The notes below the pieces were generated by a model. It saw only the letters and a list, made by a program, of their open reading frames with translations. It did no database searches and was not told the DNA's origin. From an uncultured Bacteroidales bacterium (lineage in GTDB: Bacteria > Bacteroidota > Bacteroidia > Bacteroidales > CHK158-818): 64,000 nucleotides of DNA. The translations under genes and the position numbers were made by a program. The stretch is taken from assembly GCA_949300615.1 (NCBI GenBank), contig CASGEW010000010.1:391-64390 (forward strand), read 5' to 3'. Positions 8,559 through 47,472 of this stretch are shown in pieces (the first letter of the stretch is position 1; the number at the start of each line of letters is the position of its first letter).

Positions 8559-8568
8559 TTTTATAACA
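8559..8568 (+). promoter_or_regulatory. TTTTATAACA motif copy upstream of phage-type locus A
   Basis: Exact 10-mer, 91 nt upstream of the ATG at 8659. The same 10-mer occurs twice in the portal/876-aa intergenic region. Confidence 0.3.
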
Positions 8569-8658
8569 TGGATGGAGGAACTATTTATGCTTGTTTTGCA
8601 TTGTCAATGGGAAATATGGTAAAAAACCATCTATTAAAAACTAATTAAAAAATAAGTT

Positions 8659-9426
8659 ATGGAAAATTTTATGGAACAGAATGACGAACGGGTACAAAAG
8701 ACTCCCCGTGAGTTGTTGCGTGAAAAATTGTTGCAGTACTATCCCGACCGGAAGGTGGAGTCGGACGATGACCTTTTCGATTTGCTTTGTGAGTACGACT
8801 CGCAGATCAGCAGTTGTTACAACCGTTTGAAAGATGGACAGTTGAAATTGGCTTACCTGTTTAACGAGCATCCCAGAGTGGGGGCCTTTATTTCGGATGT
8901 TGTGTCGGGCGATGACGCGTTGTTGGCTTGTGTCCGTCATTTCGGGAAAGAATTGTTGGAAAGCGGGAACGATTTTGACACGTTGGATCGGATTCGCCGC
9001 GAAGATATGATTTACCGCGAACGACGTATGCAGCAGCGGGCCATGGAGGAAGAACGGGAACAAAATTGGGAACGCAGCGAACGTATCATTGCGGCGTTCA
9101 AAACGCAGCATGGCTTGTCGGACGAGGTGTTCGATCGCTTTCTGGAAGAGGTGTACGATTTGGTGGAGAGTATCTTCATGGGTAAATTCTCCATGCGGAC
9201 ACTGGAACTCCTCTACCGGGGGATGAATTATGAGTCGGACATGATGCAGGCCGAGATGAATGGTGAGATACGGGGAAAGAATCAGCGGATTGTCCTGGAA
9301 CGGGAACGGGCTGCCGGCGATTCGGTGCCTTCGTTGCATAACCGTACTTCGGTCGGAGCTCTTGACGACGATGACAGATTACCTCTTGCCGGATATCGCC
9401 GACAACCTTCGGTGTGGGATTTATAA
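8659..9426 (+). CDS. putative capsid scaffolding protein
   Basis: 255 aa, highly charged and acidic, with helix-prone repeats (RREDMIYRERRMQQRAMEEEREQNWERSERI). It sits immediately upstream of the capsid-like gene. The call rests on position and composition only. Confidence 0.45.
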   Translation: MENFMEQNDERVQKTPRELLREKLLQYYPDRKVESDDDLFDLLCEYDSQISSCYNRLKDGQLKLAYLFNEHPRVGAFISDVVSGDDALLACVRHFGKELLESGNDFDTLDRIRREDMIYRERRMQQRAMEEEREQNWERSERIIAAFKTQHGLSDEVFDRFLEEVYDLVESIFMGKFSMRTLELLYRGMNYESDMMQAEMNGEIRGKNQRIVLERERAAGDSVPSLHNRTSVGALDDDDRLPLAGYRRQPSVWDL

Positions 9427-9475
9427 CAAGGCCTTTGGGTAAAATTCTATGTATAACTTTAATGATTAAACAAAC

Positions 9476-10861
9476 ATGAGAAAAAAAGTATTTCAGTTTT
9501 TGAAGTCGGAGAACTTTTTGCTTTTTGCATTGGCGCTGATAGCGATAGCTGTTAGCCTTTGTTCGAATGATGGCGTATTGGTTGCGGCTGTTTTTGCCGG
9601 AGCATCGGGTAGTAAGATTGTGTCGGGAGAGTCGCTGACAACCGATATCAGCCGGAGAGAAAGTCCGGACCTGTTGATGAATGAGGTGGATAATGTCATC
9701 ACGAAGATCCGTCCGTTGTCAACCCCGATTGATCAGATTTCGCGCGTGGCCAGAGCCCGCAAAAGCCAGTCGATGATTGTCGATTACTATTCGGTAGATG
9801 TGAAACCGAGCCGTACTACGGTAAAAACCGCTTATACGGAACCCGATAGCGAAGATGCTACGGCCAATGCTCAGCGGGTGAAACTGGCTACGGCCAACGA
9901 TGAAATTTTTGAAGTGTCCGAAACGTTGCTTTTGCCCGGATTGAAAGGTTACGAGGCTGATGGAACGACCTTGTCGAAGTCTGATTTGGTGTTGTATGTG
10001 TCGTCAAAAGATGAGGATGGGTCTATTTATGTCTATGCCATCAACGGGAAGAAAATCGGTACGATTGAAAATTGCGTGCCTTCGCTCTCGGCAGGACAGG
10101 CCATTATCCGAATGGGGCGTGCTGCGACCGAATTGGATGTACAGACCGGTCAGTTTGAGGCGTTGCCTGTCAAGGAGCAGAATTTCTGCCAGATTTTCAA
10201 AATGCAGATTGAAGAATCTACGTTGCAGAAAATTGCCAAAAAGAATGTTCCTTGGAGATTCTCGGATTCGGAAGAGGCTGCCATTTTCGATATGCGCCTG
10301 GGAATGGAGAAGACCTTTATGTTTGGTGTAAAACGTCAGATTTACGATGCCAAAAAGAAAGAGTCTGTTTACCTGACCGGAGGTATCTGGTGGCAGGCCG
10401 GTAAGGAGTATGAATACGATGCTTCGGCTGGATTTACCCAGAACGATTTGGTGGACATTATGAAAGAGGCCTTTACCGGGAATGGCGGTACGAAACGGAA
10501 AATGTTGGTGGGCGGATCGGATTTGATTGCCGCCATCAATAAAATGGAGATTACCAAGGTGATTAATGCCAGTGAAACCACGGCGGCATTCGGGATGGAT
10601 TTCACCCAGATCGTATCGAAATTCGGGAAACTGGGGGTTATCTTCTCAGAAGTCTTTGATGATTGCGGTATGTCCGGTTACGGATTTATCGTAGATCCCG
10701 ATTTGATCACCAAGTGGTCGCATATCCCGTTCGGGAAAGAGCAGCTTGACCTGAAAAAGGCCGGTATCCGAAATGTGGATGCTACGGTACTTACCGAAGC
10801 CAGCTGTTTGACGCTCCGTTATCCGGCGGCCCATATGCGTATCGTTCCCCAAGGAGCATAA
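9476..10861 (+). CDS. putative major capsid protein (HK97-fold type)
   Basis: 461 aa. Its position after the scaffold-like gene fits, as do motifs I associate with podoviral/HK97-like coat proteins (SPDLLMNEVDNVITKIRPLSTPIDQISR; GMEKTFMFGVKRQ; GGIWWQAGKEY). The N-terminal ~65 aa are unusually hydrophobic, so the start is uncertain. Confidence 0.65.
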   Translation: MRKKVFQFLKSENFLLFALALIAIAVSLCSNDGVLVAAVFAGASGSKIVSGESLTTDISRRESPDLLMNEVDNVITKIRPLSTPIDQISRVARARKSQSMIVDYYSVDVKPSRTTVKTAYTEPDSEDATANAQRVKLATANDEIFEVSETLLLPGLKGYEADGTTLSKSDLVLYVSSKDEDGSIYVYAINGKKIGTIENCVPSLSAGQAIIRMGRAATELDVQTGQFEALPVKEQNFCQIFKMQIEESTLQKIAKKNVPWRFSDSEEAAIFDMRLGMEKTFMFGVKRQIYDAKKKESVYLTGGIWWQAGKEYEYDASAGFTQNDLVDIMKEAFTGNGGTKRKMLVGGSDLIAAINKMEITKVINASETTAAFGMDFTQIVSKFGKLGVIFSEVFDDCGMSGYGFIVDPDLITKWSHIPFGKEQLDLKKAGIRNVDATVLTEASCLTLRYPAAHMRIVPQGA

Positions 10862-10902
10862 GCTGTTTGTCTGGGGCTTGTGATTGATTCTTTTTGAAAG
10901 GT

Positions 10903-10957
10903 CGGATTGCCCTGTATGTTTCATGTTGGTGAGAGATAGGGGGCAATCCGTTTCTTT
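10903..10957 (+). terminator. stem-loop plus T-rich tail after the capsid-like gene
   Basis: cggattgccc (10903-10912) pairs with gggcaatccg (10941-10950), followed by tttctttatt. Confidence 0.45.
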
Positions 10958-10971
10958 ATTATTAAAATGCA

Positions 10972-11361
10972 ATGTTTATGGATGATATAAAAATATATAC
11001 GACCCGCCATGGGAATTTAAGTATCCCTTTGTGCGTGGATGGCAAGCAAACCCGGATACGGTTTGTATCCAAAGATAACATAGTGGGGTTTTATGTTACC
11101 GCCGATAAGGCGATACAGCAGGCCGTAGAGTCGATACCGGCTTTCGGTACCAAAATTCAGTTGCAGGCGTCCGGTTACCGGCCTGCGGAGGAGATGGAGA
11201 TTCCGCTGGCTCCTGTCGAAGGTATTACCACGTGGCAGGCTGCCCGTGAATATTTGTGTAAGCCGCCCTATTCAGAGCCGAAAAGGGGACTGAATACGCC
11301 CGAAAAGATTCGTGCCCGAGCCAAAAAGCTGGGACTTTTCTTCCCAGAAATAAAAGAGTGA
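10972..11361 (+). CDS. hypothetical protein (virion module)
   Basis: 129-aa ORF with an ATG start, co-directional between the capsid-like and fibre genes. No motif recognised. Confidence 0.55.
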   Translation: MFMDDIKIYTTRHGNLSIPLCVDGKQTRIRFVSKDNIVGFYVTADKAIQQAVESIPAFGTKIQLQASGYRPAEEMEIPLAPVEGITTWQAAREYLCKPPYSEPKRGLNTPEKIRARAKKLGLFFPEIKE

Positions 11362-11387
11362 GTAGATTAATTTAAAAACAACCAGTT

Positions 11388-14300
11388 ATGCAATATTGTA
11401 ATTTACACGACCGTTCTAATGGATTGTTTCTGGGCTATTTCTCTATGTTGACCGAGGTGTTGAGTAAATATCCCGAAGGGGTACCGGAAGGTAGTTATTT
11501 CGTGAATGGCGAGACGTTGTCTATCTGGGTATGGAACGATGCGGAAAAAGAGTGGATGGATACGAATCGTCCCATGCAAAGCCCGTTGTCGGGTGTAGTG
11601 GATGACCCGGCAACATACCGTCCCGAGGTGGTCAAAGGGGTGAAGGCCTATTATTTGTATATTTCGCCGCCGGCGGACAATCTTTGTTTTGTCCATTTTG
11701 TCAATGGGGATGAACCCTTGCGGATAACGGTTGAACAATCGGCTGTTATCAGCCTGTTTTGGGACGGCGACTTTTGGCACGTGTATATCACTCCTGTTAA
11801 ATTGGAGGCGTTTCAAGCGGAGGCTTATACCGATTTTCGGTTTCAGCTGTCAACCTCGGAAGATACCCCTCCACAGGTGAATCGGCTTTCAGTTAATCCG
11901 GGGGAGGGTTGGGTGTCGCAAATCCCGGAATCTGGTGAAGGGTTGTTTTTGTGGATGATCAGCGCTAAGTTGGATGGTAACGGCGATTTTTGCGATGCCG
12001 AAACCGGCTGGTCGGCTCCTGTTCGTCTGACCGGGGACAAAGGTTCTACCGGCCCTAACGGAGAAAACAGCTATTGTATGGTGTTGAGCAACGACAGCCA
12101 TACGATTCCCTGTCAGAAAGATGGTTCTGGCGGTTATTACGACGGGGCTCATACTACGTGTTATGTCTTTGAGGGGAGCGTGGATATTTCGTCGCAATAT
12201 ACCTTCAACGTAATCGTTCCCGATGGAGTTGTATATACACTGGGAAACCAGAACCGTACGGTGGTGGTTTCCGATATGGAGGATGATTCGGCTACTATTA
12301 CCTTTATCGGCGAATGTCTGGATAAACCTACCTTGTTTAAAATATTTTCTTTGGCTAAAAGCAAACAGGGTTTCGACGGCGATCCGGCTGTAACGTATCG
12401 ACTTTCGGTGTCGGATATTGTTGTAAGGCAGACCTCGGCAGGGTTGAGGGTTCCCGAGCAGTTGACGGTGGAGTCTCTGGTCCAAACGGCCGGAGAAGTT
12501 CCGACTCTTTTCCCGGCATATTTTTTGGTAGAAGGAATAAAGGAAGACTCTTCTCGTACGACGTTGTTGTCAACCACCTCCCCGGTATCGTCAGTCTCTT
12601 TCCCGACGTTGTCTGAATACGACTCTTTTGAAATAACGTTGTATAAAGATTATACTGCGGAAGGAGGATTCCAGAACCGGTTGGATCGTGAGAATATACC
12701 GGTTTTATGCGATGGCGCTGACGGCGTAGGAAGTGTTGGTGCCGTGTTGAGGCCGCGCGGAGAGTGGAGTAATACCAAGATATACGGTTGTTTCGATGCG
12801 TACCGGGATGTGGTCATTTATGGGGAAGATCGAAAATATTATGTTGCCAAAGAGGGGATCGGTTCTATACCGGTGGGAACACTGCCTACCAATACCATTT
12901 ATTGGGAACCGTTTGACGATTACGAGAATATTGCTACCGGATTGTTGTTGGCCGATAACGCATATATCGACATTCTCGGGACGAGTGGTATTCGTATAGG
13001 CAATTACCCCAATTGTTGGGAGATGACGGCGGGAACAATTGTTCACCGGGTTTCTGGATTGTCTTTAACGGCTGATGGCGTATTGTCTGCCCCGGATGGT
13101 TTGCATATAAAGATTGGCAATAATACGATTGCCGATTTTACGGATCAAAAGATTCAAACTTCCGTAACAGAGGTAAAAAGTTATACGGATAATAAGGTTT
13201 CAGATCTACAAATCGGTGGCCGGAATCTATTACCCAACTCAAAAGATGTAAGCGATACGCCTACCTCTTTTGCGGTAGGATATTTGGCTGCATATAGAAA
13301 TTTAACGAGGACCTTAAACGCAGGCGAGACGGTTATTTTTTCATACAGCGGAGTAACATCGAATAGTATTGTTGGATTCGCTTTATATAGTTTAAATTCT
13401 TCCATAGATGTTTTTCCGGCGAATACTCCGGTAACGTTGACGAAGAGTTACGAGCATTTTCGAGTTAGAGTGTCCTCTTCGGCGGCTTTTGCCGCTGCTT
13501 ATATGAAGTTGGAAGTTGGTACAAAAGCAACGGATTGGTCGCCTGCCCCGGAGGATGTACAAGATGAGTTGGACGATAAAGTAGCTACGACGGTTTATAA
13601 TACTGGGATCACACAGTTACAAAGCAGCATTAATTCCAAAGTAAGCCAAACCGATTTCGATGCTTTGGGAAACCGCATCTCTGCGGTTGAAACGGAAATA
13701 ATCCAAACGCCTAATAAAATAACCCAGGCAATAAAGGAAACAAGTATAGGGGGCGATAATCTTCTACCCAATCTACAACAGCGGTGGGCACGAGGACGTT
13801 TTAATTCTTCAACAGGAGCTATTGAGGTGCCATCAGGTACAGGTTGGAGTTATGTGCGAATAAATATATACTGTGCAGAATTTTTCCCGGTAAACGGAGG
13901 AGAAACGCTGGTATTTTCAGCTCCGACGGATCATTCGTACACGTGTTTTCCTGCTCAGTATGATGCGAGCAAGACGTTTATACCTGTTGCACCAGAGCTT
14001 TATTATATGCGTAATTATTACGATGAAAATCAGCCTGATAATTTAAAGTTTTTAACGTTAAAGCCGCAAACGAGATACGTGCGTTGGCAGATACAATGTT
14101 CATACGGAAGCGAGACAGGAGATTTTTACCCATCTTGGTTTGAGACAAACCATGCACAAGTAGAGATAGGTACTAAGCCGTCGGCGTATAAGACGCCGTT
14201 TACCGATGTAACCTATACAGGTATTGATATACAGCAGGGAAAGATTTTTCTTACGTCCGACAAGGTAGAAATATCGGGTTCACTTATTGTCAAAGGTATC

Positions 14301-14864
14301 CAGAACGGAGGGATTAACGTAGGAGGAAACTGCATCATTACCAGTACGGGGTTGATTACTGCCAAAGGAGCGACCATCGAGGGGAAAATAACGGCAACGA
14401 GCGGAAGCATAGGAGGGGTAAGCATAAGCAATAGCCGTATAGGTATTGATTCAAGTAGCTCTACTGCTGTTGGCTCTTTCCTCGCTGCCGGATACTTAGG
14501 AGTAAGAAGTAAGGCCAATTATTTTCGGGTCGATGCGAATGACGCAGAGTTACAATGTACGATAAACAAGCAAAGCGACACAACACCCTGTATAGATATT
14601 AAGAATACATCTACATCCGGCGGGTCAACGGCTGCAACAGCCATCCGGGCGTTCGGTAAAAACGAGTTATACGGAGGAGTTCAAATTATAACGGCAAATG
14701 CAACGCTAATAGACGATGCTGCTCCTAAAATAGAGGTAACCCGAACCGATTTAAAAGTAACGTTGCGATATAATAATACCGGAACGTATGTAACCGGCTA
14801 TTTAAGGATAACATCATCACCGGCAACCGGAGGAGCTGCGACAGTACAATTTGTAAGAGACTAA
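11388..14864 (+). CDS. tail fibre / receptor-binding protein
   Basis: 1158 aa. It has a short collagen-like run GDKGSTGPNGEN (12033-12068). Two tandem modules each start IGG(R/D)NLLPN and end (K)LE(V/I)GTK..., the first continuing into the DWSPAPED motif common in prophage fibres, and are separated by a coiled-coil-like spacer. The C-terminal segment is Gly/Ser/Thr/Ile-rich. Confidence 0.7.
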   Translation: MQYCNLHDRSNGLFLGYFSMLTEVLSKYPEGVPEGSYFVNGETLSIWVWNDAEKEWMDTNRPMQSPLSGVVDDPATYRPEVVKGVKAYYLYISPPADNLCFVHFVNGDEPLRITVEQSAVISLFWDGDFWHVYITPVKLEAFQAEAYTDFRFQLSTSEDTPPQVNRLSVNPGEGWVSQIPESGEGLFLWMISAKLDGNGDFCDAETGWSAPVRLTGDKGSTGPNGENSYCMVLSNDSHTIPCQKDGSGGYYDGAHTTCYVFEGSVDISSQYTFNVIVPDGVVYTLGNQNRTVVVSDMEDDSATITFIGECLDKPTLFKIFSLAKSKQGFDGDPAVTYRLSVSDIVVRQTSAGLRVPEQLTVESLVQTAGEVPTLFPAYFLVEGIKEDSSRTTLLSTTSPVSSVSFPTLSEYDSFEITLYKDYTAEGGFQNRLDRENIPVLCDGADGVGSVGAVLRPRGEWSNTKIYGCFDAYRDVVIYGEDRKYYVAKEGIGSIPVGTLPTNTIYWEPFDDYENIATGLLLADNAYIDILGTSGIRIGNYPNCWEMTAGTIVHRVSGLSLTADGVLSAPDGLHIKIGNNTIADFTDQKIQTSVTEVKSYTDNKVSDLQIGGRNLLPNSKDVSDTPTSFAVGYLAAYRNLTRTLNAGETVIFSYSGVTSNSIVGFALYSLNSSIDVFPANTPVTLTKSYEHFRVRVSSSAAFAAAYMKLEVGTKATDWSPAPEDVQDELDDKVATTVYNTGITQLQSSINSKVSQTDFDALGNRISAVETEIIQTPNKITQAIKETSIGGDNLLPNLQQRWARGRFNSSTGAIEVPSGTGWSYVRINIYCAEFFPVNGGETLVFSAPTDHSYTCFPAQYDASKTFIPVAPELYYMRNYYDENQPDNLKFLTLKPQTRYVRWQIQCSYGSETGDFYPSWFETNHAQVEIGTKPSAYKTPFTDVTYTGIDIQQGKIFLTSDKVEISGSLIVKGIQNGGINVGGNCIITSTGLITAKGATIEGKITATSGSIGGVSISNSRIGIDSSSSTAVGSFLAAGYLGVRSKANYFRVDANDAELQCTINKQSDTTPCIDIKNTSTSGGSTAATAIRAFGKNELYGGVQIITANATLIDDAAPKIEVTRTDLKVTLRYNNTGTYVTGYLRITSSPATGGAATVQFVRD

Positions 14865-14885
14865 ACACTAAAAACAGACAAAACA

Positions 14886-15155
14886 ATGAAACTGAATTTA
14901 AAAGAGTTGCCCGTCGAAGTATCGCCTGACGGCACGATAGAAAACAGAGATGTCCGCACACAGATGGGCAATCTGCTGTGGAACTTTTCGCAAGACATTG
15001 CCCTTTCCGACGTCGGGAGGGAGATTTACCGCAGCGAGGGTGAGATCGAGGTGGCCGATGTATATCGGGAGGGAATCGAAGACCTGGTAAAACGATCAAC
15101 CTTTTTTGCCCCCGTCAAGCGGGCCATATTGAAACAACTTAATACTAACCCATAA
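14886..15155 (+). CDS. hypothetical protein (virion module)
   Basis: 89-aa ORF with an ATG start, 21 nt after the fibre stop. Confidence 0.5.
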   Translation: MKLNLKELPVEVSPDGTIENRDVRTQMGNLLWNFSQDIALSDVGREIYRSEGEIEVADVYREGIEDLVKRSTFFAPVKRAILKQLNTNP

Positions 15156-15176
15156 AAAGAATAGGAGGAATAAATC

Positions 15177-15500
15177 ATGTTAGAAAAAATCAAAACCACC
15201 GTAACCGTAGAAGCGCGAAAAGAGACCGATAACGCGTTGTATCAGTTGAACTATTCGGTCGTGGATAATAGCTTGACGTCTATAAACTGTTCGGTCAATA
15301 AAAAGACTGTTGTACAGGTAGATGCCCCCGAGGGGCAACAATTTGCCGAACAACAGGTGTATGCCGGCAACGTCTATCTGACGAACGGGCACATTACCTG
15401 TTCCATTCCGCAGGGGAATGACGCTACCGCTTATATGGCCGATTTTATGGCGATGGTTGAAGAGATCGAGAGCGACATCGAGACTGAAATCTCAGCATAA
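15177..15500 (+). CDS. hypothetical protein (virion module)
   Basis: 107-aa ORF with an ATG start preceded by aggagg, with an acidic C-terminus. Confidence 0.5.
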   Translation: MLEKIKTTVTVEARKETDNALYQLNYSVVDNSLTSINCSVNKKTVVQVDAPEGQQFAEQQVYAGNVYLTNGHITCSIPQGNDATAYMADFMAMVEEIESDIETEISA

Positions 15501-15527
15501 ACAGCAAAGGAATAAGGAGACGAAGCG

Positions 15528-16154
15528 ATGAAAATCAGTACAGAAGAGTTGAAAAATCTGGTCAAGACCGATATGGAGGAGCTCTCGCCCCAGTGGGAGA
15601 GTGAGGTGTTGCAGACCGACGCCATCGGGATAGAGCGGTATATCGAGACGAAACTGCCCGAGGCCATTCGGCAGGTTTTGTTGTCGGTTTCTCCCAGTAT
15701 GCTGGAAGCCGTTCCGTTCGATGCTGCGCTTTTGCCCCAGAAAAACCAGGATGGCAGCGGTATCGTCCCTCTTCCCGAGGATTGGATGAAGATGGTTTCG
15801 TTCAAGATGAAAGGGTGGAACCGTCCGGTAACCGAGTTCCTTGCCGAGGAGGATCCGCTTGCCATTCGCCAGCAGAATCTCTTTTTGCGGGGCGGTAGTC
15901 TCAAACCGGTTTGTGTGATAGGGCATACCCCCGAGGGCATTTTGTCGCTGTTCTATTATTCGTTACCTGCCTATGTGCGGGTGCATGAGATAGAGCAGGC
16001 GCTCTACCTGCCCTTGCCCAAAGAGGTGGATGGGGCGTACGATTTTCCCCGTCGGTTGATGCCGGAGGTTTGTTACGTGTGTGCCGCTTTGGTGTACGAT
16101 ATTCTGGGACGTCCCGATATGGCAGCCGTGATGAGAGAGCGTGTAACCCTTTAA
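15528..16154 (+). CDS. hypothetical virion protein (possible head-tail adaptor)
   Basis: 208-aa ORF. The pattern LPEDWMKMVSFKMKGWNRPVTEF...PLAIRQQNLFLRGGSLKPV resembles connector/adaptor-type proteins of Bacteroides phages as I recall them. The functional call is weak. Confidence 0.4.
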   Translation: MKISTEELKNLVKTDMEELSPQWESEVLQTDAIGIERYIETKLPEAIRQVLLSVSPSMLEAVPFDAALLPQKNQDGSGIVPLPEDWMKMVSFKMKGWNRPVTEFLAEEDPLAIRQQNLFLRGGSLKPVCVIGHTPEGILSLFYYSLPAYVRVHEIEQALYLPLPKEVDGAYDFPRRLMPEVCYVCAALVYDILGRPDMAAVMRERVTL

Positions 16155-16167
16155 AAATGTTTTTGAT

Positions 16168-16557
16168 ATGACACGATTGAGTTATTATTATGGATTGAAA
16201 GCAGCTATGAAGGATTATCCCGAGGGGGGGATGGCCGGCGACTGTTTCGTCAATGGCGAGACCTGCTCTATCTGGATGTGGGACCCCGTTTGCCGGGAAT
16301 GGACCGATACCAACCGTCCGTTGCAAAGCCCCTTGGCGGGGTTGATTATTGATGCGGCCACATTCTGCCCTTCGGTACATCCCGGCGTTCGGTGCGTATA
16401 TCTGTTCGTTTCGGGTACGGGCGGGACATTCGAGTTTCCCTATTTCCGCAACGAGGATATACCGTTGAAGGTGGTGTTGTCGGGACCGTCTCAGGTTTGG
16501 TTGTATTGGAACGGCGACAATTGGGAGGTACAGGTAATCCCTTCGGTTGCCGAGTAG
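16168..16557 (+). CDS. fibre N-terminal-domain paralog (stand-alone 129-aa protein)
   Basis: By my eye alignment it matches residues ~20-150 of the 1158-aa fibre at roughly 40-45% identity: DYPEGGMAGDCFVNGETCSIWMWD..REWTDTNRPLQSPLAG versus KYPEGVPEGSYFVNGETLSIWVWN..KEWMDTNRPMQSPLSG. Confidence 0.7.
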   Translation: MTRLSYYYGLKAAMKDYPEGGMAGDCFVNGETCSIWMWDPVCREWTDTNRPLQSPLAGLIIDAATFCPSVHPGVRCVYLFVSGTGGTFEFPYFRNEDIPLKVVLSGPSQVWLYWNGDNWEVQVIPSVAE

Positions 16558-16571
16558 TGTAGAACCGATGC

Positions 16572-16628
16572 CGGGGAGCAAATTTCCGAGATGAGGTAAA
16601 CCGGTGTTTACGGGCGGTTTGCTCCCCG
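16572..16628 (+). terminator. nested stem-loop between the structural and lysis genes
   Basis: cggggagcaaa (16572-16582) pairs with tttgctccccg (16618-16628). An inner hairpin gtaaac/gtttac lies at 16596-16611. It is followed by acattttatt. Confidence 0.4.
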
Positions 16629-16649
16629 ACATTTTATTCATGTACGGAT

Positions 16650-17105
16650 ATGACGAAATTATTTATTACGATTGTTTTCCCCGTGTGGGCGTTGTCGGCG
16701 CAAGAGGGGTTGAGAGTGTTTCTTTTGCCGTTGTGGCCGATGTATGTTTTGTTTGCGGCATTGGTGCTGGCCGATTTACGTCTGGGGGTACGTGCAGCCC
16801 GTCTTCGTGGCGAGGTGGTACGCCGCAGCCGGGCGTGGCGACGGACACTGTCGAAATATATCGACTATTGTTGTGTGGTAACGGCGTGTAAGATGTTCGA
16901 CGATTTTATCGTTTCGCAGTACAGCGTGCCGTTGGTTTACATTTCGTTTTGTTTGGTGTTGGCATGGGTGGAGTTGGATTCGGTGTTTTCCAACTTCGGC
17001 GAGTTGCACGGCATCAATGTCTTGAAAGCTGTCAAGCAGTTTATAAATGAGAAAATATCGATTGATTTACCCGAAAAAGAAGATAGAAGAGATGCAGATA
17101 AGTGA
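16650..17105 (+). CDS. phage holin-family membrane protein
   Basis: 151 aa with several hydrophobic helices. The motif LADLRLGVRAARLRGEVVRRSRAWRRTLSKYIDYCCVV resembles the holin_4_1-type family. It lies directly upstream of, and overlaps, the endolysin gene. Confidence 0.65.
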   Translation: MTKLFITIVFPVWALSAQEGLRVFLLPLWPMYVLFAALVLADLRLGVRAARLRGEVVRRSRAWRRTLSKYIDYCCVVTACKMFDDFIVSQYSVPLVYISFCLVLAWVELDSVFSNFGELHGINVLKAVKQFINEKISIDLPEKEDRRDADK

Positions 17106-17490
17106 ACATTTTTCGATGGACGAGTTTTGTATAAGCGATACGGCCAAGCGGCTTGGTATCGCCAATTTGCCCGACCAGGAGGCATCCGAATCGTTGGTTT
17201 ATCTGGTTCGGAACTTGCTCGAACCCTTGCGTCGGGCGTACGGGAAGCCCCTACACATAAACAGCGGCTACCGTTGTCCGGCCCTGAACCGGGCGGTGGG
17301 AGGCGTCTCCTCTTCCCAGCATTTGAAAGGAGAGGCGGCCGATATTTCGTGCGACGATCCGGTTGCGTTGTTGCAGCAGTTGCGCCAGACGGAGCTTGTC
17401 TTTGATCAGGCCATTCTTTACCCTACGTTTTTACATGTGTCGCTTCGCCGTCAGAATAACCGGCAGCGTATTATCATCAAAAAAAAATAG
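17092..17490 (+). CDS. peptidase M15-family (D-Ala-D-Ala carboxypeptidase-like) endolysin
   Basis: MQISEHFSMDEFCISDTAKRLGIAN...INSGYRCPALNRAVGGVSSSQHLKGEAADI carries the H..D...H zinc-peptidase M15A pattern. I prefer the ATG at 17092, which overlaps the holin stop by 14 nt, to the ATG at 17047 given in the track. Confidence 0.8.
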   Translation: MQISEHFSMDEFCISDTAKRLGIANLPDQEASESLVYLVRNLLEPLRRAYGKPLHINSGYRCPALNRAVGGVSSSQHLKGEAADISCDDPVALLQQLRQTELVFDQAILYPTFLHVSLRRQNNRQRIIIKKK

Positions 17491-17496
17491 ACCGCT

Positions 17497-19368
17497 ATGA
17501 ATAGAGAAACGAAAAGATTTACGGAATATGCCCCTGGTAGGACGATGGGGCAGGATGAAAAATCAAACGTTTTCGACTGGGACTTTCCCGAACGTGAGTT
17601 GAGTTATCAAGAACTGTCCGGCTATGGCTCTCCTTCGGAGTACAGCCGATTTGCGGGTAGCGACTCCCCGCTTTCGCAACGGAAATTGCTTGCGTGGCTG
17701 AACGCGCCTCCCTCCGAGGGCGTTACCGGCAGGAGACCGCAAGAGAGCCAGCCTTATGCCGACCTTTCGTGGCGCAATTACGGGACATCGCCCGGTCGTA
17801 CGATCGAACCCGTTACCGTCGGTAGCTCTCCCGAAGAGAATTTTTCGTATTCGGGCCTTTCCCGTTACGCCGATGTGTCCCCCTCGTATAACCGGCAGCC
17901 ATATCCCAATTTCGATGCAGAGCATTGGGAACAGGCTTTCTTGCCGAAAACCGGTAAACGGATGGATTTATTGTCCCATTTCGGGATGCCCGATCCGGAT
18001 ACCGTTGCGCATCGGGTAGCGACGGATACGGACGATTTCCCCGATTACGGGTATTATTACGATACAAAAAGCCAGGCGTGGAAACAGTCTTTTCCGCCGT
18101 CGTACCTGGTAGCTCCCCGCTACCTCCCTCCGGAAGAGACGAAGTCCCAAGATTTGCCGGTATATGCCGGTATCTTTAAAAACTATCTCAACCACAGCGG
18201 GCCTACCGATTTCGTAGAGCTCCCGGTACCCTATGTGCAGGAGGGCGAAGCGGACTTTACCGAGGCGCTCCAACCCAATGATACGCAGGCCCGCAGCCTG
18301 GCCCGCCATTCGTGGAAACAGTATATGTACAAAGAAGCCCCCGAGGCCTATAAGGCGTTGGAATATGCCAAATCCAAGGGCCAAAAGACGGCATGGATTC
18401 CCACGCCCTATTTAGAACAACACGGCATACGGCCGTTAAGTCCCTATGTCTGGCAGAAAGATATCTATGACCAGGCCATGCAAAACAGCGACCATGAACA
18501 GCTGTGGAGCGACTTGACCGGATTGAAGGAGTTTAAATGGGATATGCCTTCGTTGTTTGATGGGTGGATGCATTCCGACCGGAAGTACGAACCTTTTTGG
18601 GCAAAAGAACCCGAAAAATCGCAAAAAAGTATTACTTTTGATGATGTAACCAAGCAGGTCAACAAACTGTGTCTGGAAGACAAGGATAATTTGTTTTTGA
18701 TGGCGCCGTTAGATTCGATAAACAAGGCGTGGCGGTCGCAGTCACCAAGTAAATGTTACGATTTTTGTGTAGATATTGCCAAAAACTTGGGGCAAGCACA
18801 GACCGGTAATTCGGAACGAATTATCCCGTTTACCTATCAGCGAAATCAGACGGGTACGCATTTCTACTATGGAGACAAAGCGGAGAGCTATAAAAGGGCT
18901 ATCAGCGTTATAGACAGGCATCTGTTGAATAAACGGGCTGTCATTATGGGGTTGGATTATAGATTTGATGGAATAAATAAAGATGGAACAGATCATTTTG
19001 TATTGTTGGTGGGGAAGGGGTACGACCCCGAGAGGAAACAATATTACTACCTGTATGCCGATCCCGGACGGAAAACGTTGCAAGGAGGGGTATCGGAAGA
19101 AAACCGAATCTACCTGGACGACAAACGTTGTATCTTGTCCGGGGAAAAAACGGGAAAGACAAACAAGGATTGGAGTAACAACTATGTGTTGACCCATGTC
19201 CGTCCAAACGATGGGAAAGATGAAGAAACCGAAAGTGTAGCAAATATATATAAAGTATTAAGCAACCAAAGTCATGAAGATAAACAACCGTTCGGTTATG
19301 AAAATGGCGATACTATGTTTATTCGCAATTATGATTCTGACAATCTTTACAACAAGTTGTCGAAATAG
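17497..19368 (+). CDS. hypothetical 623-aa protein with a Pro/Tyr/Ser-rich N-half and a possible papain-fold (CHAP/C39-like) C-terminal domain
   Basis: Candidate catalytic Cys420 sits in SPSKCYDFCVDIAKNLG (nt 18754-18756). Candidate His500 sits in GTDHFVLLVGKGYD (nt 18994-18996). The domain call is inference only. Confidence 0.5.
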   Translation: MNRETKRFTEYAPGRTMGQDEKSNVFDWDFPERELSYQELSGYGSPSEYSRFAGSDSPLSQRKLLAWLNAPPSEGVTGRRPQESQPYADLSWRNYGTSPGRTIEPVTVGSSPEENFSYSGLSRYADVSPSYNRQPYPNFDAEHWEQAFLPKTGKRMDLLSHFGMPDPDTVAHRVATDTDDFPDYGYYYDTKSQAWKQSFPPSYLVAPRYLPPEETKSQDLPVYAGIFKNYLNHSGPTDFVELPVPYVQEGEADFTEALQPNDTQARSLARHSWKQYMYKEAPEAYKALEYAKSKGQKTAWIPTPYLEQHGIRPLSPYVWQKDIYDQAMQNSDHEQLWSDLTGLKEFKWDMPSLFDGWMHSDRKYEPFWAKEPEKSQKSITFDDVTKQVNKLCLEDKDNLFLMAPLDSINKAWRSQSPSKCYDFCVDIAKNLGQAQTGNSERIIPFTYQRNQTGTHFYYGDKAESYKRAISVIDRHLLNKRAVIMGLDYRFDGINKDGTDHFVLLVGKGYDPERKQYYYLYADPGRKTLQGGVSEENRIYLDDKRCILSGEKTGKTNKDWSNNYVLTHVRPNDGKDEETESVANIYKVLSNQSHEDKQPFGYENGDTMFIRNYDSDNLYNKLSK

Positions 19369-21034
19369 TACGAAGCCGTCCTCCCCGGTAGAGCCGGACA
19401 GCAGTACCTTGTCTGGGCCGGTAAAGCAAGAGGCCGACATCGTGAGAAATATTTACCGGGACAAGGCGAAGCACATCTTGCTGGATGAGTCGATGTACCG
19501 GAGCCCGGTACCGGGGGTAGGCTTTCCGGATATGGACAGCATGGTATTGGGCGAAGATTATCACAAGAAATTAGCGGCCCTGAATCTGCCCTACTGTTGG
19601 AACAGTAATGATGTTTATCCATTGACATATGATATCGAAGATTACCACCGACACCTTCGGACCGATCTTTTGTACAGCCATAACGCTCCACTTCCCTGGA
19701 AAAACGACGCGATAGGCTTTACCGAATACAACGGCATCAACCGGAGGCCGATAGGAATTTCTTTTGTTATCGACGGGAAGTTCCCTACCAACGGGCCCTA
19801 CCAGTTTTTGACGGGTATCTTTAATACAGAATGTCAGGGAACTAGTTTCTGCCGGTTTTATTACACCTATACGTACGACGGGAAGTTGATAGATATGTTG
19901 CCGACCTTCTACACCCGACTTTGGGGCATCATGACAGAATCGGAGGTACTGCCCGATTTGTCGATACGCAAAACCTCCATTCAGGTGGATCGGGTGGAAT
20001 TTACCATGCCCGATACAACGGGATATACGGATGAAGACTTTATAATGGATCCTCCTATCGATGAAAGAAGTAATTACAACGATACTCTTTTGGGTCGCCG
20101 GATAGACAGCTATTACCAGCTGACGCCGGATGGCCGTTTCGAGTTGCGCCGGCAGTTGGAGTATCCCCGAAGAGAGTACACGATAACACAATTGTATAAA
20201 TTAGACAGTCTGAATTATGTAAATAAAAGAACGGGAAGGCAGGTAAACGTTATCGATATCATTCCCCAGGACAGCAGCCGGGCCCGCTGGACGTTGGACA
20301 TGGATCGTCGATACCTTCCCCCCGGCGGCCGGCACAACCGCTCTACCGAAGATCTGACGGTAACGGGGAGCGATCGTCCCGACATCCGTTACCCGTTGCA
20401 AGAGAGTATCCCCTTCGACACACTCTTCCTGGGCCGTATCGGCTGGGCACAACTGCCCTTCTATGCGGACACGGCCGGCGTCCCCCCCAGCCGCTGGTAC
20501 CGGGATCGAAGCACCGTCTCGCCGGGCCGTCCGTCAGTAGATTTAAGCAACTTCCCCTCGATAGCCGTCGATGAGTTCGGCCAGGCCATCAAGACCGGAT
20601 TGCCCGACACGATCACCTCCCCGCTCATCCGCCTCGACTACCTGTTACCCAGCAACGGCCCCTACCTGTTTGTTTACGGCACCTACGGCACCCCCCGCGA
20701 GCCCTACTGGGGATACTACGCCACATTCGACCCGAAGAGCGGTCGGTTGATAGACCACCTGTTAGCCAAAGAGTGGGGCATGGGCATGACCACGTTAGAG
20801 AGCGAAGTCAGTACAGACTTACGAATTCGTACCACCCAGATCAACTTTTTCGACACCTACCGTTTCAGCACCCCCGGGCAGCCGCTCCGAGGCCAGCGTA
20901 TAGACCGTTACTACCGGTTGACGCCCGAAGGCAAGTTCGAGCCGGAGCGGACAGACCGTTATTCGGTACGTCCGTACGACATCACCGAGCTGGAACACAC
21001 CCGTCTGTACGAAACCGCCGAAACCCCGGAATAG
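19298..21034 (+). CDS. lipoprotein with an internally duplicated domain
   Basis: Signal MKMAILCLFAIMILTIFTTSC; the ORF could also start at 19274. Two homologous halves (about aa 165-310 and 453-580) share LP(T/S)NGPY...G(K/R)LID...SEV..DL(S/R)IR(K/T)T.I......RID.YY.LTP.G.FE. It overlaps the upstream ORF by ~70 nt. Confidence 0.7.
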   Translation: MKMAILCLFAIMILTIFTTSCRNSTKPSSPVEPDSSTLSGPVKQEADIVRNIYRDKAKHILLDESMYRSPVPGVGFPDMDSMVLGEDYHKKLAALNLPYCWNSNDVYPLTYDIEDYHRHLRTDLLYSHNAPLPWKNDAIGFTEYNGINRRPIGISFVIDGKFPTNGPYQFLTGIFNTECQGTSFCRFYYTYTYDGKLIDMLPTFYTRLWGIMTESEVLPDLSIRKTSIQVDRVEFTMPDTTGYTDEDFIMDPPIDERSNYNDTLLGRRIDSYYQLTPDGRFELRRQLEYPRREYTITQLYKLDSLNYVNKRTGRQVNVIDIIPQDSSRARWTLDMDRRYLPPGGRHNRSTEDLTVTGSDRPDIRYPLQESIPFDTLFLGRIGWAQLPFYADTAGVPPSRWYRDRSTVSPGRPSVDLSNFPSIAVDEFGQAIKTGLPDTITSPLIRLDYLLPSNGPYLFVYGTYGTPREPYWGYYATFDPKSGRLIDHLLAKEWGMGMTTLESEVSTDLRIRTTQINFFDTYRFSTPGQPLRGQRIDRYYRLTPEGKFEPERTDRYSVRPYDITELEHTRLYETAETPE

Positions 21035-21043: not shown

Positions 21044-21082
21044 AAAAAAAGAAGAGATTGTATCGGCAATCTCTTCTTTTTT
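21044..21082. terminator. bidirectional intrinsic terminator
   Basis: The element reads A7-gaagagattg-tatcgg-caatctcttc-T6, between the end of locus A (21034) and the mscL stop (21087). Confidence 0.8.
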
Positions 21083-23716: not shown

Positions 23717-23754
23717 GCGGGGAGTTTCTGTTTTTTTCTCATGTTGCCGGGTTG

Positions 23755-23762
23755 TCATAACA
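23755..23762 (+). promoter_or_regulatory. degenerate copy (TCATAACA) of the TTTTATAACA motif
   Basis: It matches 7 of the last 8 positions of the 10-mer (8 of 10 overall). It lies 49 nt upstream of the terminase ATG. Confidence 0.2.
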
Positions 23763-23810
23763 TCGGGATAAGAACCGTTTTTCGTTTTTTTGTCTGTAAA
23801 TGATAAGGAA

Positions 23811-39289: not shown

Positions 39290-39646
39290 AATCCGGTCGG
39301 GGATCACACTTCTGGTATTGCTGGCCGTTTTTGTCGCTTTAAATTCATTTTTATGAGTGAGTATTGTTGTCAATTCTTTTCCTCTTTTTCGTCCGGTGTA
39401 AAGGATGTTGCTATGTTAAAAAAAACGAGTGTATAAGAGTTTCTGTTAAAAGCGGTAGCTGTTTGGCCTGCCCATCCCTCAAAAATCTTGATAGGTCTAA
39501 TTTTTGTAAACCTCCTGAAATAGGTTACCGTTAAGTACCGAGAAAGCATCCGATTGGCCCCTTTCCCGGGATAGAGGTCCATTGTTATAATCTGTTTATT
39601 AATGTCTATATCTCCAAAAAGGCCATTCTACAAGCCGAAAAATGTG

Positions 39647-40685: not shown

Positions 40686-40700
40686 CAGTAAACTATTTTT

Positions 40701-42211: not shown

Positions 42212-42245
42212 TGTTTACATAACGAAAAATAAAAAATAAGCAGAC

Positions 42246-43331: not shown

Positions 43332-43346
43332 CCCAAAATCCAGCAC

Positions 43347-44444: not shown

Positions 44445-44568
44445 AACAAATCGTTCTTTTTGTGGGATAGGAGAGTGTCCTATCCGGAGCATGTTAGTGC
44501 CCCGTCTGCTTGATTTTTTTGCGTATCTTTGCTACGAAAACATATTGCGAGTTTATAAATCGGTAAGT

Positions 44569-45261
44569 ATGAAATACGTTTTATCTTTTCTATTAATCTG
44601 GCTCTGGGTCGGGACGACGTTATCGGCCCAGTTGATCGAAGATGCCATAGAGGTTCCCGATATGGAGGAGATACAGACGCAGATAAACGACCCCTCCTCG
44701 CCGTTGTACTATCCGGCCTTGATGAAACGTTACCTGGACAACGATACCACGTTGAATTTAGCTGAATATAGGTGCCTTTATTTAGGATACAGTTTTCAGG
44801 AAGATTACAATCCATACCGGGTGGTAGAGCATACCGACCGTTTGAAAGAGTTGTATGCCAGGTCTGATTACGACGAATTTGTGTGCGACTCGATCATCAA
44901 ATACGCCCGTCTGGCCATCGATGATTTCCCGTTCGATTTAAGGCAGATGAATATGTTGGTATATGCCTATCGGTGCAAGGGAGATAAAGAGCAGGAGGCT
45001 TTGTGGGGGTATAAACTGAAAAGCATCGTAGATGCCATCCTCTCCACCGGAGATGGTCAAACCCGCGAATCGGCCTGGTTTGTCATCTATCCAGCACACG
45101 AATACGATATTATCAACCGATTGGGGCTCACCGTTACTTCGTATGTGTTTGAGGAGCCCTGTTATGACCATCTGAAAGTCGATACCAATCCATTTAAGGT
45201 TGAAGGTTATTATTTCAATGTAAGCCGTATCCTGACCGTATTTGAGCAAAAGTATAAATAG
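44569..45261 (+). CDS. secreted DUF4919-like protein
   Basis: The start is chosen at MKYVLSFLLIWLWVGTTLSAQ (signal peptide). The segment YYPALMKRYLDNDTTLNLAEYRCLYLGYSFQEDYNPY resembles DUF4919 as I recall it. Confidence 0.55.
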   Translation: MKYVLSFLLIWLWVGTTLSAQLIEDAIEVPDMEEIQTQINDPSSPLYYPALMKRYLDNDTTLNLAEYRCLYLGYSFQEDYNPYRVVEHTDRLKELYARSDYDEFVCDSIIKYARLAIDDFPFDLRQMNMLVYAYRCKGDKEQEALWGYKLKSIVDAILSTGDGQTRESAWFVIYPAHEYDIINRLGLTVTSYVFEEPCYDHLKVDTNPFKVEGYYFNVSRILTVFEQKYK

Positions 45262-45283
45262 CGTTTGCTGCCGATTCAAGAAA

Positions 45284-45325
45284 GAACCGGGCAAGACGAT
45301 TCTACAAGAACGTTTTGCCCGGTTC
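45284..45325. terminator. stem-loop terminator (mainly for the portal gene on the minus strand)
   Basis: gaaccgggcaa (45284-45294) pairs with ttgcccggttc (45315-45325). There is a T-rich tail on the minus strand. Confidence 0.6.
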
Positions 45326-45370
45326 CGGTATGGAAAGAAAAACGAAAATCCGTTGTTGTTCGGTAAAAAT

Positions 45371-47359
45371 TTATTGGGATATTTCCGACGGCATATGGGT
45401 TACTGGCGAAAGTACAGTGTTCGGCTGTGCCGTTTGTCCGTTTGCGTTGTTCGGTATCCCGTAACCGTTTGCCATAGCCTGTTGTTGGTTTAACAGTTCC
45501 TGTTGCATCTTTTCCTTTACCTGCTGTATACTTTGCAACAAGCGGTCGGCAAAGGGGAAAGAACCGTTTTCGAGCAGCATTTCCAGTGAGATCTGTCCCA
45601 TCCGGAACAGCTCCATCAACAGCTCGTTCGATGCCATCCGGTAGGTAGGGTTGGTGCTCGATTCGCAGATTGAGAGGTCGAACTCCACATCCCGAACCTT
45701 TTGCGGGTTGTACATTTTCGCCTCTTTGTCATATACACTTCCGGCGATGTTCAGATAACGGGCTTCTCGATAGAATTGTTGAACCGTTTTCATCACCTTG
45801 GTATCCCGTTCTTCCCGGAACGATTTGAACGATTCAAACAGGTCGATTAAGTTCAAGCTCGAATTTTGAGTCTGTTGCGCATACAATACCCCCGAGGTAA
45901 CGGTCGTAGCGACTTTCCCCTGCATGGCCCCGTGGATACCCGATATATCTTCTATCAGGCGTAATTGCAAATTGAGCAGTTCGTATGCCCCCACGTTGGT
46001 AGCATTGGTCGAGATCTGTTGAGGCAGTACCCCGCCGGGTTTGGGCTTAAACAGGATAATACCGTTGTACCGTGTCCACTGTTCGGCCACATCTTCAATA
46101 GACATCCCGTCCGGAATCTGGTCTTCCGGGAAAAGCAGCACCCCTTTGGCGCTGGCCCCCATGATAAAGTCGATCAAGGTTATCAGTCGGTTGATATAAC
46201 GCTGTTGGTCGATAATATCCTCTACAAACGAATGTATCTCACCGTCCATCAACGGGTAGAGTTTAAAGACGTACGGATGTTCCCCGTGCCAGTAGGGAGT
46301 CTCCCCTTCGTCCAGAGTATGGCCGAAAGGGGTAAAAAAACGGTAATACCAATAGCGGTCTATAAACCACTCGGTTTCAATCAGCGCTACCTTCTCCGGA
46401 GCAATGCCTTTTTGTGCGGCTTCCTCCAAGCGCATCCGGTTTATCGCCTCTATCTCCTGCATCCGTTCCATCTCCTCTTTGTAATAATCTCCGGTTAACG
46501 TATCGTGGCAGCGCAGACGCTCTTTGTTTTCAAGCGTCCATACCTCGATGATACGGCACAAATGGGGCTCGGTGGCGATTAAAAAATCGAGGTTGTCGAG
46601 GTTGTCCGATGTCAGCGCCTCAAACGATCGGGAAATCTCTTCGCGGGTAGCCTGATTATACAGCTCCCGGAGCTGTTTGGCCCTGCGGCGCGAACCTTTG
46701 GCAAACTTGCTGACCACATCGGCAATCGGCACGTCGTGCAGTTCGCCTATTAAAGTACAGTCCCAAAGTCGAACATCCTCCATCGCGTTGAAAAATACGC
46801 GGTTCGGGTTTACGACATCCACCCAGACATCCATCCGGTTGTTTCGCCACCCGTATCCTATTTTGTGGAAGCACGTTCCCGAGACGACAAACTCTTCCAT
46901 CGTCCGGCCGTCTATTTCCCAGAGGTGGTTCATCTGGTAAACGTATTGCATGGCCACGCTCATCATCTCGCCCGCTTTCTGTTCTTCCCGGTCGCGGGAT
47001 ATGCAGACCGGTTCGGTTTGTACGTTGCGGAACTGTCCGACGATGTTCTTTACCATCTGGCGCACCAGGTTGTTTTTGAGCGGAATCTTTCCTTGCTCTT
47101 TGAGGTATTGTTCTTCGGTAATGGTGCGGCCGTCAGGAGTTTCGATTTTATCGTTCCATTGTTTGCCGAAGGTATAGTTCCGGCTGCGGCAGCGTTTCTT
47201 CCGAAAATGTTCGATGTTGTCCCAGGCACGTTTGGCTTGGAGCAGAACGTCGAGATGCGATCTGTCCAAATCGAACGTCTCATCCGTACGGTTCCTTTTT
47301 TGTTTGCCTAAGGAGCTGTCATTCCCTTCCGTAGAGAAATTAATTTCTGTCTTTTCCAT
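45371..47359 (-). CDS. phage portal protein
   Basis: The track start at 47368 is a TTG; the ATG at 47359 gives MEKTEINF.... Length is ~662 aa. The N-terminal pattern AKRAWDNIEHFRKKRCRSRNYTFGKQWND (Y-x-x-G-x-Q-W), overall size and Gln/Asn-rich C-terminal tail resemble podoviral portals. Confidence 0.7.
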   Translation of the reverse strand: MEKTEINFSTEGNDSSLGKQKRNRTDETFDLDRSHLDVLLQAKRAWDNIEHFRKKRCRSRNYTFGKQWNDKIETPDGRTITEEQYLKEQGKIPLKNNLVRQMVKNIVGQFRNVQTEPVCISRDREEQKAGEMMSVAMQYVYQMNHLWEIDGRTMEEFVVSGTCFHKIGYGWRNNRMDVWVDVVNPNRVFFNAMEDVRLWDCTLIGELHDVPIADVVSKFAKGSRRRAKQLRELYNQATREEISRSFEALTSDNLDNLDFLIATEPHLCRIIEVWTLENKERLRCHDTLTGDYYKEEMERMQEIEAINRMRLEEAAQKGIAPEKVALIETEWFIDRYWYYRFFTPFGHTLDEGETPYWHGEHPYVFKLYPLMDGEIHSFVEDIIDQQRYINRLITLIDFIMGASAKGVLLFPEDQIPDGMSIEDVAEQWTRYNGIILFKPKPGGVLPQQISTNATNVGAYELLNLQLRLIEDISGIHGAMQGKVATTVTSGVLYAQQTQNSSLNLIDLFESFKSFREERDTKVMKTVQQFYREARYLNIAGSVYDKEAKMYNPQKVRDVEFDLSICESSTNPTYRMASNELLMELFRMGQISLEMLLENGSFPFADRLLQSIQQVKEKMQQELLNQQQAMANGYGIPNNANGQTAQPNTVLSPVTHMPSEISQ

Positions 47360-47413
47360 ATAAATCAAAAGATTAAATATTTTCTGTGTTGCAAATAACG
47401 GGAATGTTGAGTC

Positions 47414-47472
47414 CGATCTTATGTTATAAAATAAGAATCGAGCGCTCCGGCTTCGATCTTGATTTTATAACA
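47414..47472. promoter_or_regulatory. imperfect palindrome / repeat array in the divergent portal-876aa control region
   Basis: The arms tgttataaaa (47422-47431) and ttttataaca (47463-47472) are exact reverse complements. The 7-mer cgatctt occurs at 47414-47420 and 47454-47460, with a near-inverted aagaatcg at 47433-47440. Confidence 0.4.

Follow-up and report, generated by a model that had tools for sequence, protein, structure and literature searches.

The stretch analysed here is a 64,000-nt window of contig CASGEW010000010.1 from an uncultured Bacteroidales bacterium, and it represents a chromosome close to that of Candidatus Gallibacteroides avistercoris, its portal protein being 98% identical to the portal of a metagenome-assembled genome (MAG) of that organism. 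Dispersed along the window are four phage-type transcription units, namely a scaffold-capsid-tail-lysis operon, the large terminase gene terL, a portal gene and a gene for an 876-aa protein, and in front of each of them lies a two-part element consisting of an upstream box with the core TTATAACA (degenerate at terL) and, 22 nt further on, an 8-mer resembling the -7 box of Bacteroidota promoters. Based on position, spacing and conservation across genera, this is very probably a shared functional promoter element that defines one regulon, and it suggests a single dedicated switch for what may be a gene-transfer-agent (GTA)-like particle.

The phage-derived structural and lysis operon (8659..21034, plus strand; Pfam and PHROG matches) starts with a scaffold-like gene (8659-9426; match to phrog_22323 and typical scaffold position) and the gene for an SU10-type major capsid protein (9476-10861; Pfam E 2e-46), and continues on the same strand with genes for a 129-aa protein (10972-11361) and a tail-like protein of 1158 aa (11388-14864), small open reading frames (ORFs), a holin (16650-17105), an M15 endolysin (17047-17490) and two proteins of 623 and 586 aa. 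It is closed by a bidirectional terminator with a 16-bp stem (21045..21082) between the operon and mscL. The terL gene (23811..25814, plus strand), recognised by terminase large subunit PHROGs and with its start at 23811 chosen after 667-aa homologues, stands alone between the genes for a ROK kinase and a P-type ATPase. The P22-type portal gene (45371..47359, minus strand; E 6e-41) is divergent from the gene for the 876-aa phage-type protein (47529..50159, plus strand; phrog_32516, E 3e-89), and the same divergent arrangement of its orthologue and the portal gene recurs in Coprobacter tertius and in the related locus L008.

A preliminary description of this DNA had drawn attention to an exact 10-mer upstream of three of the four units. 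Scanning both strands (128,000 positions, the basis for all motif counts and matrix ranks in the window), we found TTTTATAACA precisely at the three sites named there and nowhere else, that is at 8559-8568 (plus), 47422-47431 (minus) and 47463-47472 (plus). The distances to the start codons also agree with the sequence, with 91 nt to the scaffold-like ATG at 8659, 57 nt to the ATG of the 876-aa gene at 47529 and 63 nt to the minus-strand portal ATG at 47359, and the variant reported for terL, gTCATAACA, reads at 23754-23762, 49 nt separating position 23762 from the ATG at 23811. Dinucleotide shuffles gave an expectation of 0.25 copies of the 10-mer, the earlier value of 0.1 being of the right order of magnitude and slightly low, and none of 100 shuffles reached three copies. 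One-mismatch variants, the counting of which had been suggested as a check, number 13 across the window versus 6.6 expected; because this enrichment is weak, TTTTATAACA by itself is not the whole signal, which instead resides in the two-part element.

All four sites follow a common layout, (T)TATAACA, 22 nt and then an 8-mer ending in TTT(G/A), with identical orientation relative to the downstream gene. At the scaffold-capsid operon, the conserved core TTATAACA (8561-8568, plus, within the exact 10-mer at 8559..8568) is followed after exactly 22 nt by the -7-like box TTGTTTTG (8591..8598, plus), and at terL the degenerate upstream box TCATAACA (23755..23762, plus) precedes TTTTTTTG (23785..23792, plus) at the same distance, the latter being identical in the related locus L089. 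The portal box, the left arm of a palindrome with the TTATAACA core inside the exact 10-mer (47422..47431, minus), is kept in the related loci L001 and L002 and lies 22 nt from GTTATTTG (47392..47399, minus), of which the block CCGTTATTTGC is kept in L002. The box of the 876-aa gene, the right arm with the same core inside the exact 10-mer (47463..47472, plus), lies 22 nt from TATTTTTA (47495..47502, plus), where TAT(T/C)TTTA is kept in both L001 and L002. The pattern ATAACA-N22-NNNNTTT[GA] has exactly four matches on both window strands and these are the four phage-type loci, while neither pattern nor matrix scans found a further composite site inside the operon at 8659..21034. A search of the four upstream regions, 150 nt each, for all dyads of a 6-mer and a 3-mer separated by gaps of 10-30 gave ATAACA-26-TTT as the sole dyad common to all four, and none of 1000 shuffles gave any dyad common to the four regions.

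The strict spacing extends well beyond the window. Across approximately 800 kb of loci, box-N(g)-NNNNTTTG occurs at 27 unique sites with g=22 and at 0-3 sites for each other value of g from 14 to 30, and the Barnesiella box CTGCCA shows the same preference (16 sites at gap 22 vs 0-4 at other gaps). Among the unique gap-22 sites outside the close relatives of the window, 22 of 23 are at the expected intergenic positions. A position weight matrix (PWM) trained on 19 sites, exclusively from other genera, placed the portal (23.5 bits), scaffold (20.6 bits) and 876-aa (16.3 bits) sites as ranks 1, 2 and 3 among all window positions, with the terL site (11.5 bits) at rank 6, the shuffle maximum being 11.9 +/- 2.8 bits. 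Outside the columns forced by the search, information is carried by a T-rich flank of about 8 nt before the box and by T(T/A)T(C/A) before TTTG; the conserved upstream element is about 16 nt long, and the columns of the 22-nt spacer hold near-zero information.

Conservation at orthologous positions adds to this picture. In L002, where the portal is 82% identical and synonymous sites are saturated (pS 0.73), the intergenic region between the portal and 876-aa genes retains CTGTTATAAAATCA, ATTTTATAACATAA, CCGTTATTTGC and the opposite -7 block, and the spacers have diverged. In L089 (terL 84% identical), a perfect TTATAACA-N22-TTTTTTTG with the same spacing as in the window precedes terL, and the window terL copy can for this reason be taken as a degenerate version of a real site. 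Approximately 60 related loci carry a lineage-specific version of the box at the orthologous scaffold position, and the scaffold promoters of the other lineages all read [box]-N22-TT(T/A)CTTTG with TTTCTTTG or TTACTTTG as the -7 box. Combined with TTTCTTTG at a gap of 22 nt we found TTATAACA in L009, TTATAGCA in L010, TTATCACA in L016, TTATCGCA in L018, ATATCGCA in L020 and ATATCACA in L021-L031, and combined with TTACTTTG at the same gap CTATCGCA in L032 and TGTATGAAGCTGCCA in the Barnesiella-like version. In C. tertius, C. fastidiosus and a Barnesiella-like genome the layout also stands before terL, and in C. tertius, L008 and B. viscericola before the portal gene; relatives additionally carry it before a small gene preceding terL and before an operon encoding 192-, 167- and 825-aa proteins that is not in the window. 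A further unit of this regulon, with the box of its lineage, was seen in five lineages (loci L090, L091, L006, L004, L005 and L100); its first gene encodes a 170-200-aa protein whose N-terminus is hydrophobic, and the genes behind it encode products of about 167 and 800-1340 aa. As this unit is absent from the window, more loci of the system are expected elsewhere in this genome.

While the -7 box is constant across lineages, the upstream box changes. Its core is TTATAACA in the window and TTAT(A/C)(A/G/C)CA in relatives, preceded by the T-rich flank, and it varies by lineage (TTATAACA, TTATCGCA, ATATCACA, TTATAGGT, CTGCCA), yet within one lineage or genome the dispersed loci have it in common. 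An identical 20-mer, ATTTTCAGTTATCGCATAGG, stands before both the portal gene and terL on one contig of C. tertius, (TGTAT-N4-)CTGCCA recurs at the portal, scaffold, terL and 169-aa operon of Barnesiella, CCGCCATTATAGGT occurs twice in L100, and the divergent pairs of L004 and L005 carry TGTCATTATAGCAACC and TTCAGCAACC, respectively, each twice. Such co-variation is the pattern that would be expected from a dedicated DNA-binding factor co-evolving with its sites.

Canonical promoters of the primary sigma factor in Bacteroides consist of TTTG at -33 and TAnnTTTG at -7 with variable spacing, and the element shares with them a downstream box ending in TTTG and an upstream element in the -33 region (PMC7366714). 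It differs from them in lacking the -33 TTTG at the four window sites, where a box of 8-16 nt is found instead, in having its gap fixed at 22 nt, and in mostly having TT in place of the TA of the -7 box. The TTTG is invariant except for TTTA at the 876-aa gene. Of the four window sites one has the TA, and among the 19 foreign sites 7 carry an A at position 2, the most frequent version being TTTCTTTG. In Bacteroidota promoters the spacing between -33 and -7 is 19-21 nt.

The explanation that we favour, still tentatively, is a dedicated activator at a class-II-like position that works with the primary sigma factor. One promoter copy would head each of the four units, and the core promoter, having no -33 TTTG and a -7 box usually without the conserved A, would be too poor for the housekeeping sigma factor alone. 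A dedicated DNA-binding factor would read the box and recruit or complete RNA polymerase, and all loci would thereby be switched on together. With the 8-mer centred at -7, the 16-nt element would lie at about -49 to -34, which is a class-II activator position overlapping -33. In the middle promoters of phage T4 the MotA box replaces the -35 element, and class II activator sites are centred near -41.5. Such promoters offer an analogy, limited to layout, in which the downstream core is kept and a factor-specific box at a fixed distance would replace the upstream core; such promoters serve to time the expression of a set of phage genes. The analysis revealed neither a MotA/AsiA-like nor a Crp/Fnr-like protein.

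An alternative sigma factor of phage or host origin that reads both boxes, with region 4 at TTATnnCA (CTGCCA in Barnesiella) and region 2 at T(T/A)TnTTTG, ranks a close second and is rather unlikely in our judgement. It would account for a spacing that is strictly invariant, unlike that of the variable primary-sigma promoters, for the departure of the -7 box from TAnnTTTG at the normally conserved A, and for the position of the upstream box in the -33/-35 place, and it has a precedent in the PBSX late operon, which uses the sigma-like Xpf. However, the TTTG hallmark of the primary sigma factor is kept, the 22-nt gap exceeds the 19-21 nt of the -33/-7 pair, the upstream element of about 16 nt is longer than a typical -35, and no sigma gene was found in or beside any locus examined. 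We favour the activator because TTTG is retained, because the upstream element is long and because the gap slightly exceeds what would suit a sigma factor. Promoters of extracytoplasmic function (ECF) sigma factors, with a -35 of GGAAC/GTAAC type and a -10 of CGT type about 16-17 nt apart, were rejected since no conserved element occurs 16-17 nt after the box, the spacer information being near zero. The DnaA box, the 9-mer TTATNCACA, was rejected as well, as the window sites read TTATAACAT or TTATAACAG and no lineage has the C at position 6. A Crp/Fnr-type dyad, TTGAT-N4-ATCAC, is near-perfect in L020-L031 and absent in most others and in Barnesiella. For this phylum, a scan for promoters of sigma-70 type is uninformative.

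At the 47.4-kb site, as described earlier, two copies of the 10-mer are the arms of one palindrome, a 20-nt inverted repeat (47422-47472) that is 85% complementary with 11 nt between the arms. A repressor operator, CI-like or of the host, overlapping -33 and silencing the genes until the repressor is removed, would fit this inverted repeat, and a lineage-specific site common to all loci would also be expected from a dedicated repressor. Still, we consider it improbable, given that the site is asymmetric with fixed orientation relative to the gene, that a repressor would not require the strict 22-nt phasing to the -7 box, and that core promoters without the -33 TTTG and mostly without the -7 TA look activator-dependent rather than strong and repressed. 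The dyad arrangement is moreover not conserved: the inverted repeat is kept in L001 and L002, but the two boxes are adjacent in C. tertius, and in the Coprobacter terS-like/192-aa pair two promoters overlap face to face. The same variation speaks against a structural or recombination element (hairpin, bidirectional terminator, or invertase/integrase repeats) with coincidental copies elsewhere, which we hold to be very improbable even though the repeat itself would suit it and invertible promoters flanked by inverted repeats are common in Bacteroidales. The site lies between divergent genes, where a terminator is not needed, the arms are too close together for an invertible promoter, no recombinase gene is present in the window, and the scaffold and terL sites are single copies. 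Because each box keeps 22 nt to its own -7 box while the arrangement varies, the palindrome is, on these sequence comparisons, best described as two back-to-back divergent promoters and not as a dyad operator, hairpin or invertase site, and as a functional unit of its own it was discarded.

An AT-rich word could also recur by chance in intergenic DNA that is itself rich in AT, and this reading could draw on the composition of the motif, on the barely enriched one-mismatch variants, on the copies of TTATAACA at 491, 9421 and 39583 without a gap-22 box, and on other 6-mers that equal the window-wide count at gap 22. It is countered by the shuffles, none of which gave three exact copies or a shared dyad, and by a layout kept with strict spacing across genera, and we regard it as effectively refuted because the matrix trained on foreign sites predicts those of the window and because of the gap-22 spacing control. 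Of the two possibilities joined in the preliminary description, a shared operator or an alternative-sigma promoter element, the promoter element is supported, by its fixed orientation, strict phasing to a -7-like box, cross-genus conservation and lineage-wise sharing of the box, and the symmetric operator is not, the 47.4-kb palindrome being two divergent promoters. The idea of a shared element that co-regulates dispersed phage-type loci is supported by these comparisons, from which we infer the co-regulation itself and the kind of factor.

Several observations weigh against our interpretation. Within the window, the three cases of ATAACA at gap 22 from TTTG are equalled by other 6-mers and are not significant alone, for which reason the window by itself is not decisive and the case rests on position and cross-genome conservation. 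The related loci share ancestry, so that the site counts are non-independent events. The window terL site, at 11.5 bits, scores no better than the best random match. Two exceptions to the 22-nt rule concern homologues of the 876-aa gene in other genera: the 870-aa side in C. tertius has a gap of 23, and on the 848-aa side in L008 ATAACA is present with no box of TTTG type 22 nt further on. The 22-nt gap, being 1-3 nt longer than the reported -33/-7 spacing, fits neither the activator nor the sigma model perfectly. No sigma or regulator gene adjoins the loci in the window, and the small conserved proteins near the loci are without informative Pfam, NCBIfam, PHROG or PDB matches. Finally, we infer promoter function and positive control, and likewise the transcription start, the factor and particle production, from sequence.

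Other copies of the core in the window deserve mention. The related 8-mer noted earlier, TGTTATAA, is indeed present at 491-498 and 39583-39590. The first of these belongs to GATTATAACA-N23-CTTTTTTG at 460-498 (minus), which has the same box with a gap of 23 instead of 22. The AraC-like gene downstream of it (3-431, minus) is truncated and diverges from an RND efflux operon; the site is a chance match or an additional regulon member, probably the former. The copy at 39583-39590 was rejected as a promoter, being without a -7 box. The stop codon of the scaffold gene is overlapped by ATTTATAACA (9419-9428, including the TTATAACA copy at 9421-9428), which lies 48 nt upstream of the capsid ATG and is probably no promoter since no TTTG box follows it at gap 22. 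Three matches to TTATCG-N22-TTTG were set aside, all of them inside coding regions.

Further sequence features surround the sites. In the scaffold-capsid leader, a hairpin ATGGT-AAAAA-ACCAT (8616-8630) lies about 15-30 nt after the -7 box, and hairpins with different stem sequences occur at the same leader place in L016, L018, L020-L025, L032 and L034; the hairpin may act as a 5' stabiliser or regulatory stem-loop. About 8 nt upstream of the terL box, the block TTGTTTTTTTCTC(A/G)TGTTG (23729-23747) is kept in L089, an 84% relative, despite diverged flanks.

For the regulator we searched among the small proteins beside the loci in relatives (134/140-aa phrog_27246, 83-85-aa proteins and the 192/167/825-aa operon), none of which had an informative match in Pfam, PHROGs, NCBIfam or PDB or a homologue in the window. 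A DnaA_C-domain protein of the Bacteroides phage BF1-TP2 proved unrelated to them. The phrog_27246 protein, of about 135-140 aa, is encoded beside terL in L089 (4190-4594, minus) and L100 (8567-8989, minus), with 26% identity between the two and an internal repeat AERYYVT.../APRFFIS..., and it may represent a small terminase or a regulator. The intergenic region beside its gene in L089 contains a perfect palindrome, AGTTATAATACAACA-N-TGTTGTATTATAACT.

The chromosomal setting of the loci is that of a vertically inherited, dispersed and domesticated phage gene set of GTA-like character. Directly flanking them are genes for fumarase, mscL, a fabI-like reductase, ROK, P-type ATPase, meaB, DUF4919 and skp, and the housekeeping genes between them include fumarase, mscL, the fabI-like reductase, ROK kinase, P-type ATPase, alaS, murF-alr, phoU, a MATE pump, meaB, skp, metA, purH, mreBCD and PBP2. 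Domain and tRNA scans of the 64-kb window found no integrase, repressor, replication gene, recombinase or tRNA, and an Rfam scan of the window was empty. The junction between fumarase and scaffold-capsid is syntenic across genera in approximately 60 metagenome loci, homologues of portal and terL with 60-70% identity lie on the chromosomes of Barnesiella viscericola and Coprobacter species, and in the complete Barnesiella viscericola genome the portal gene stands among housekeeping genes. With dN/dS values of 0.03-0.08 (portal 0.03 and 876-aa gene 0.05 vs L001), the phage-type genes are under strong purifying selection and hence functional. In these data, the head, packaging, tail and lysis genes are chromosomal and vertically inherited as in a GTA, with housekeeping flanks, cross-genus fumarase-scaffold synteny, the B. 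viscericola portal and dN/dS as evidence. Synonymous divergence from L001 differs threefold between the adjacent portal (dS 0.33, 98% amino acid identity) and 876-aa (dS 0.91, 91%) genes, a contrast that suggests recombination or allele exchange at the latter. Elsewhere in the window, the heavy-metal P-type ATPase is split into overlapping ORFs at 25920-27443 and 27373-28134 (region 25920-28134) and an AcrB-type pump into 1665-3416 and 3197-4789, the pump in the same way in two other assemblies (L094, L095), and either frameshifts or natural two-part genes account for the splits.

The closest sequenced phages are the temperate Bacteroides phages BF1-TP2, BKO1-TP3 and BS-TP4, with capsids about 40% identical. 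They share the divergent terL-portal / scaffold-capsid layout and differ in being complete phage genomes of 64-68 kb with regulatory genes. BF1-TP2 (L093) has its own repeated element, GGGTAAGATTTATCGTT-N20-(C/G)ATATTTG, at 12040-12084 before the ant/rha operon and at 18960-19004 before the scaffold-capsid operon, in which both box sequence and gap are unlike those of the window. Because of an overlap between the second copy and the gp57 start as annotated, the true start of that gene is probably the ATG at 19031. No repeat of this type was found in BS-TP4, and the related true phages are without an identical element.

The phage-derived genes of RcGTA in Rhodobacter capsulatus are located at several host chromosomal loci (PMC5026251). 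Dedicated direct activators, GafA for RcGTA and GafYZ for CcGTA of Caulobacter, switch the loci on together (PMC6363796, 10.1101/2023.11.12.565669). The likeness to the present loci lies in structural, packaging and lysis genes at several chromosomal loci. The differences are that our loci belong to Bacteroidota and not to Alphaproteobacteria, that a P22-type portal and an SU10-type capsid indicate podovirus-like ancestry, and that the promoter grammar is of -7 TTTG type. FpGTA of Faecalibacterium is likewise a podovirus-like GTA-like element of a gut commensal, its phylum being Bacillota, unlike that of the window. A gut study reported GTA activity only in Oscillospiraceae and Ruminococcaceae, and lateral transduction in Bacteroides/Bacteroidales (PMC12946183), and we found no report of a GTA in Bacteroidales in the literature searched.

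We describe the element as a promoter of a new type in a system of known kind, namely a dispersed regulon of domesticated phage genes that is presumably under common control, no such system having been found for this phylum in the literature searched. A wider proposal, which we find plausible without yet calling it probable, is that the box serves as cis-regulatory code for a GTA-like system of Bacteroidota not described before. In such a system, a scattered domesticated podovirus, vertically inherited across Barnesiellaceae and related gut Bacteroidales, would be fired together by a dedicated factor whose specificity co-evolved with its promoters (TTATAACA, TTATCGCA, TTATAGGT, CTGCCA). If this is true, the box, the 22-nt gap and TTTG would together provide a sequence handle for a complete domesticated-phage regulon in a dominant gut phylum, and the box would give a direct route to the regulator. 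The system would further represent a natural example of a factor specificity and its dispersed target sites changing together, and it would bear on the mobilisation of chromosomal DNA among gut Bacteroidales.

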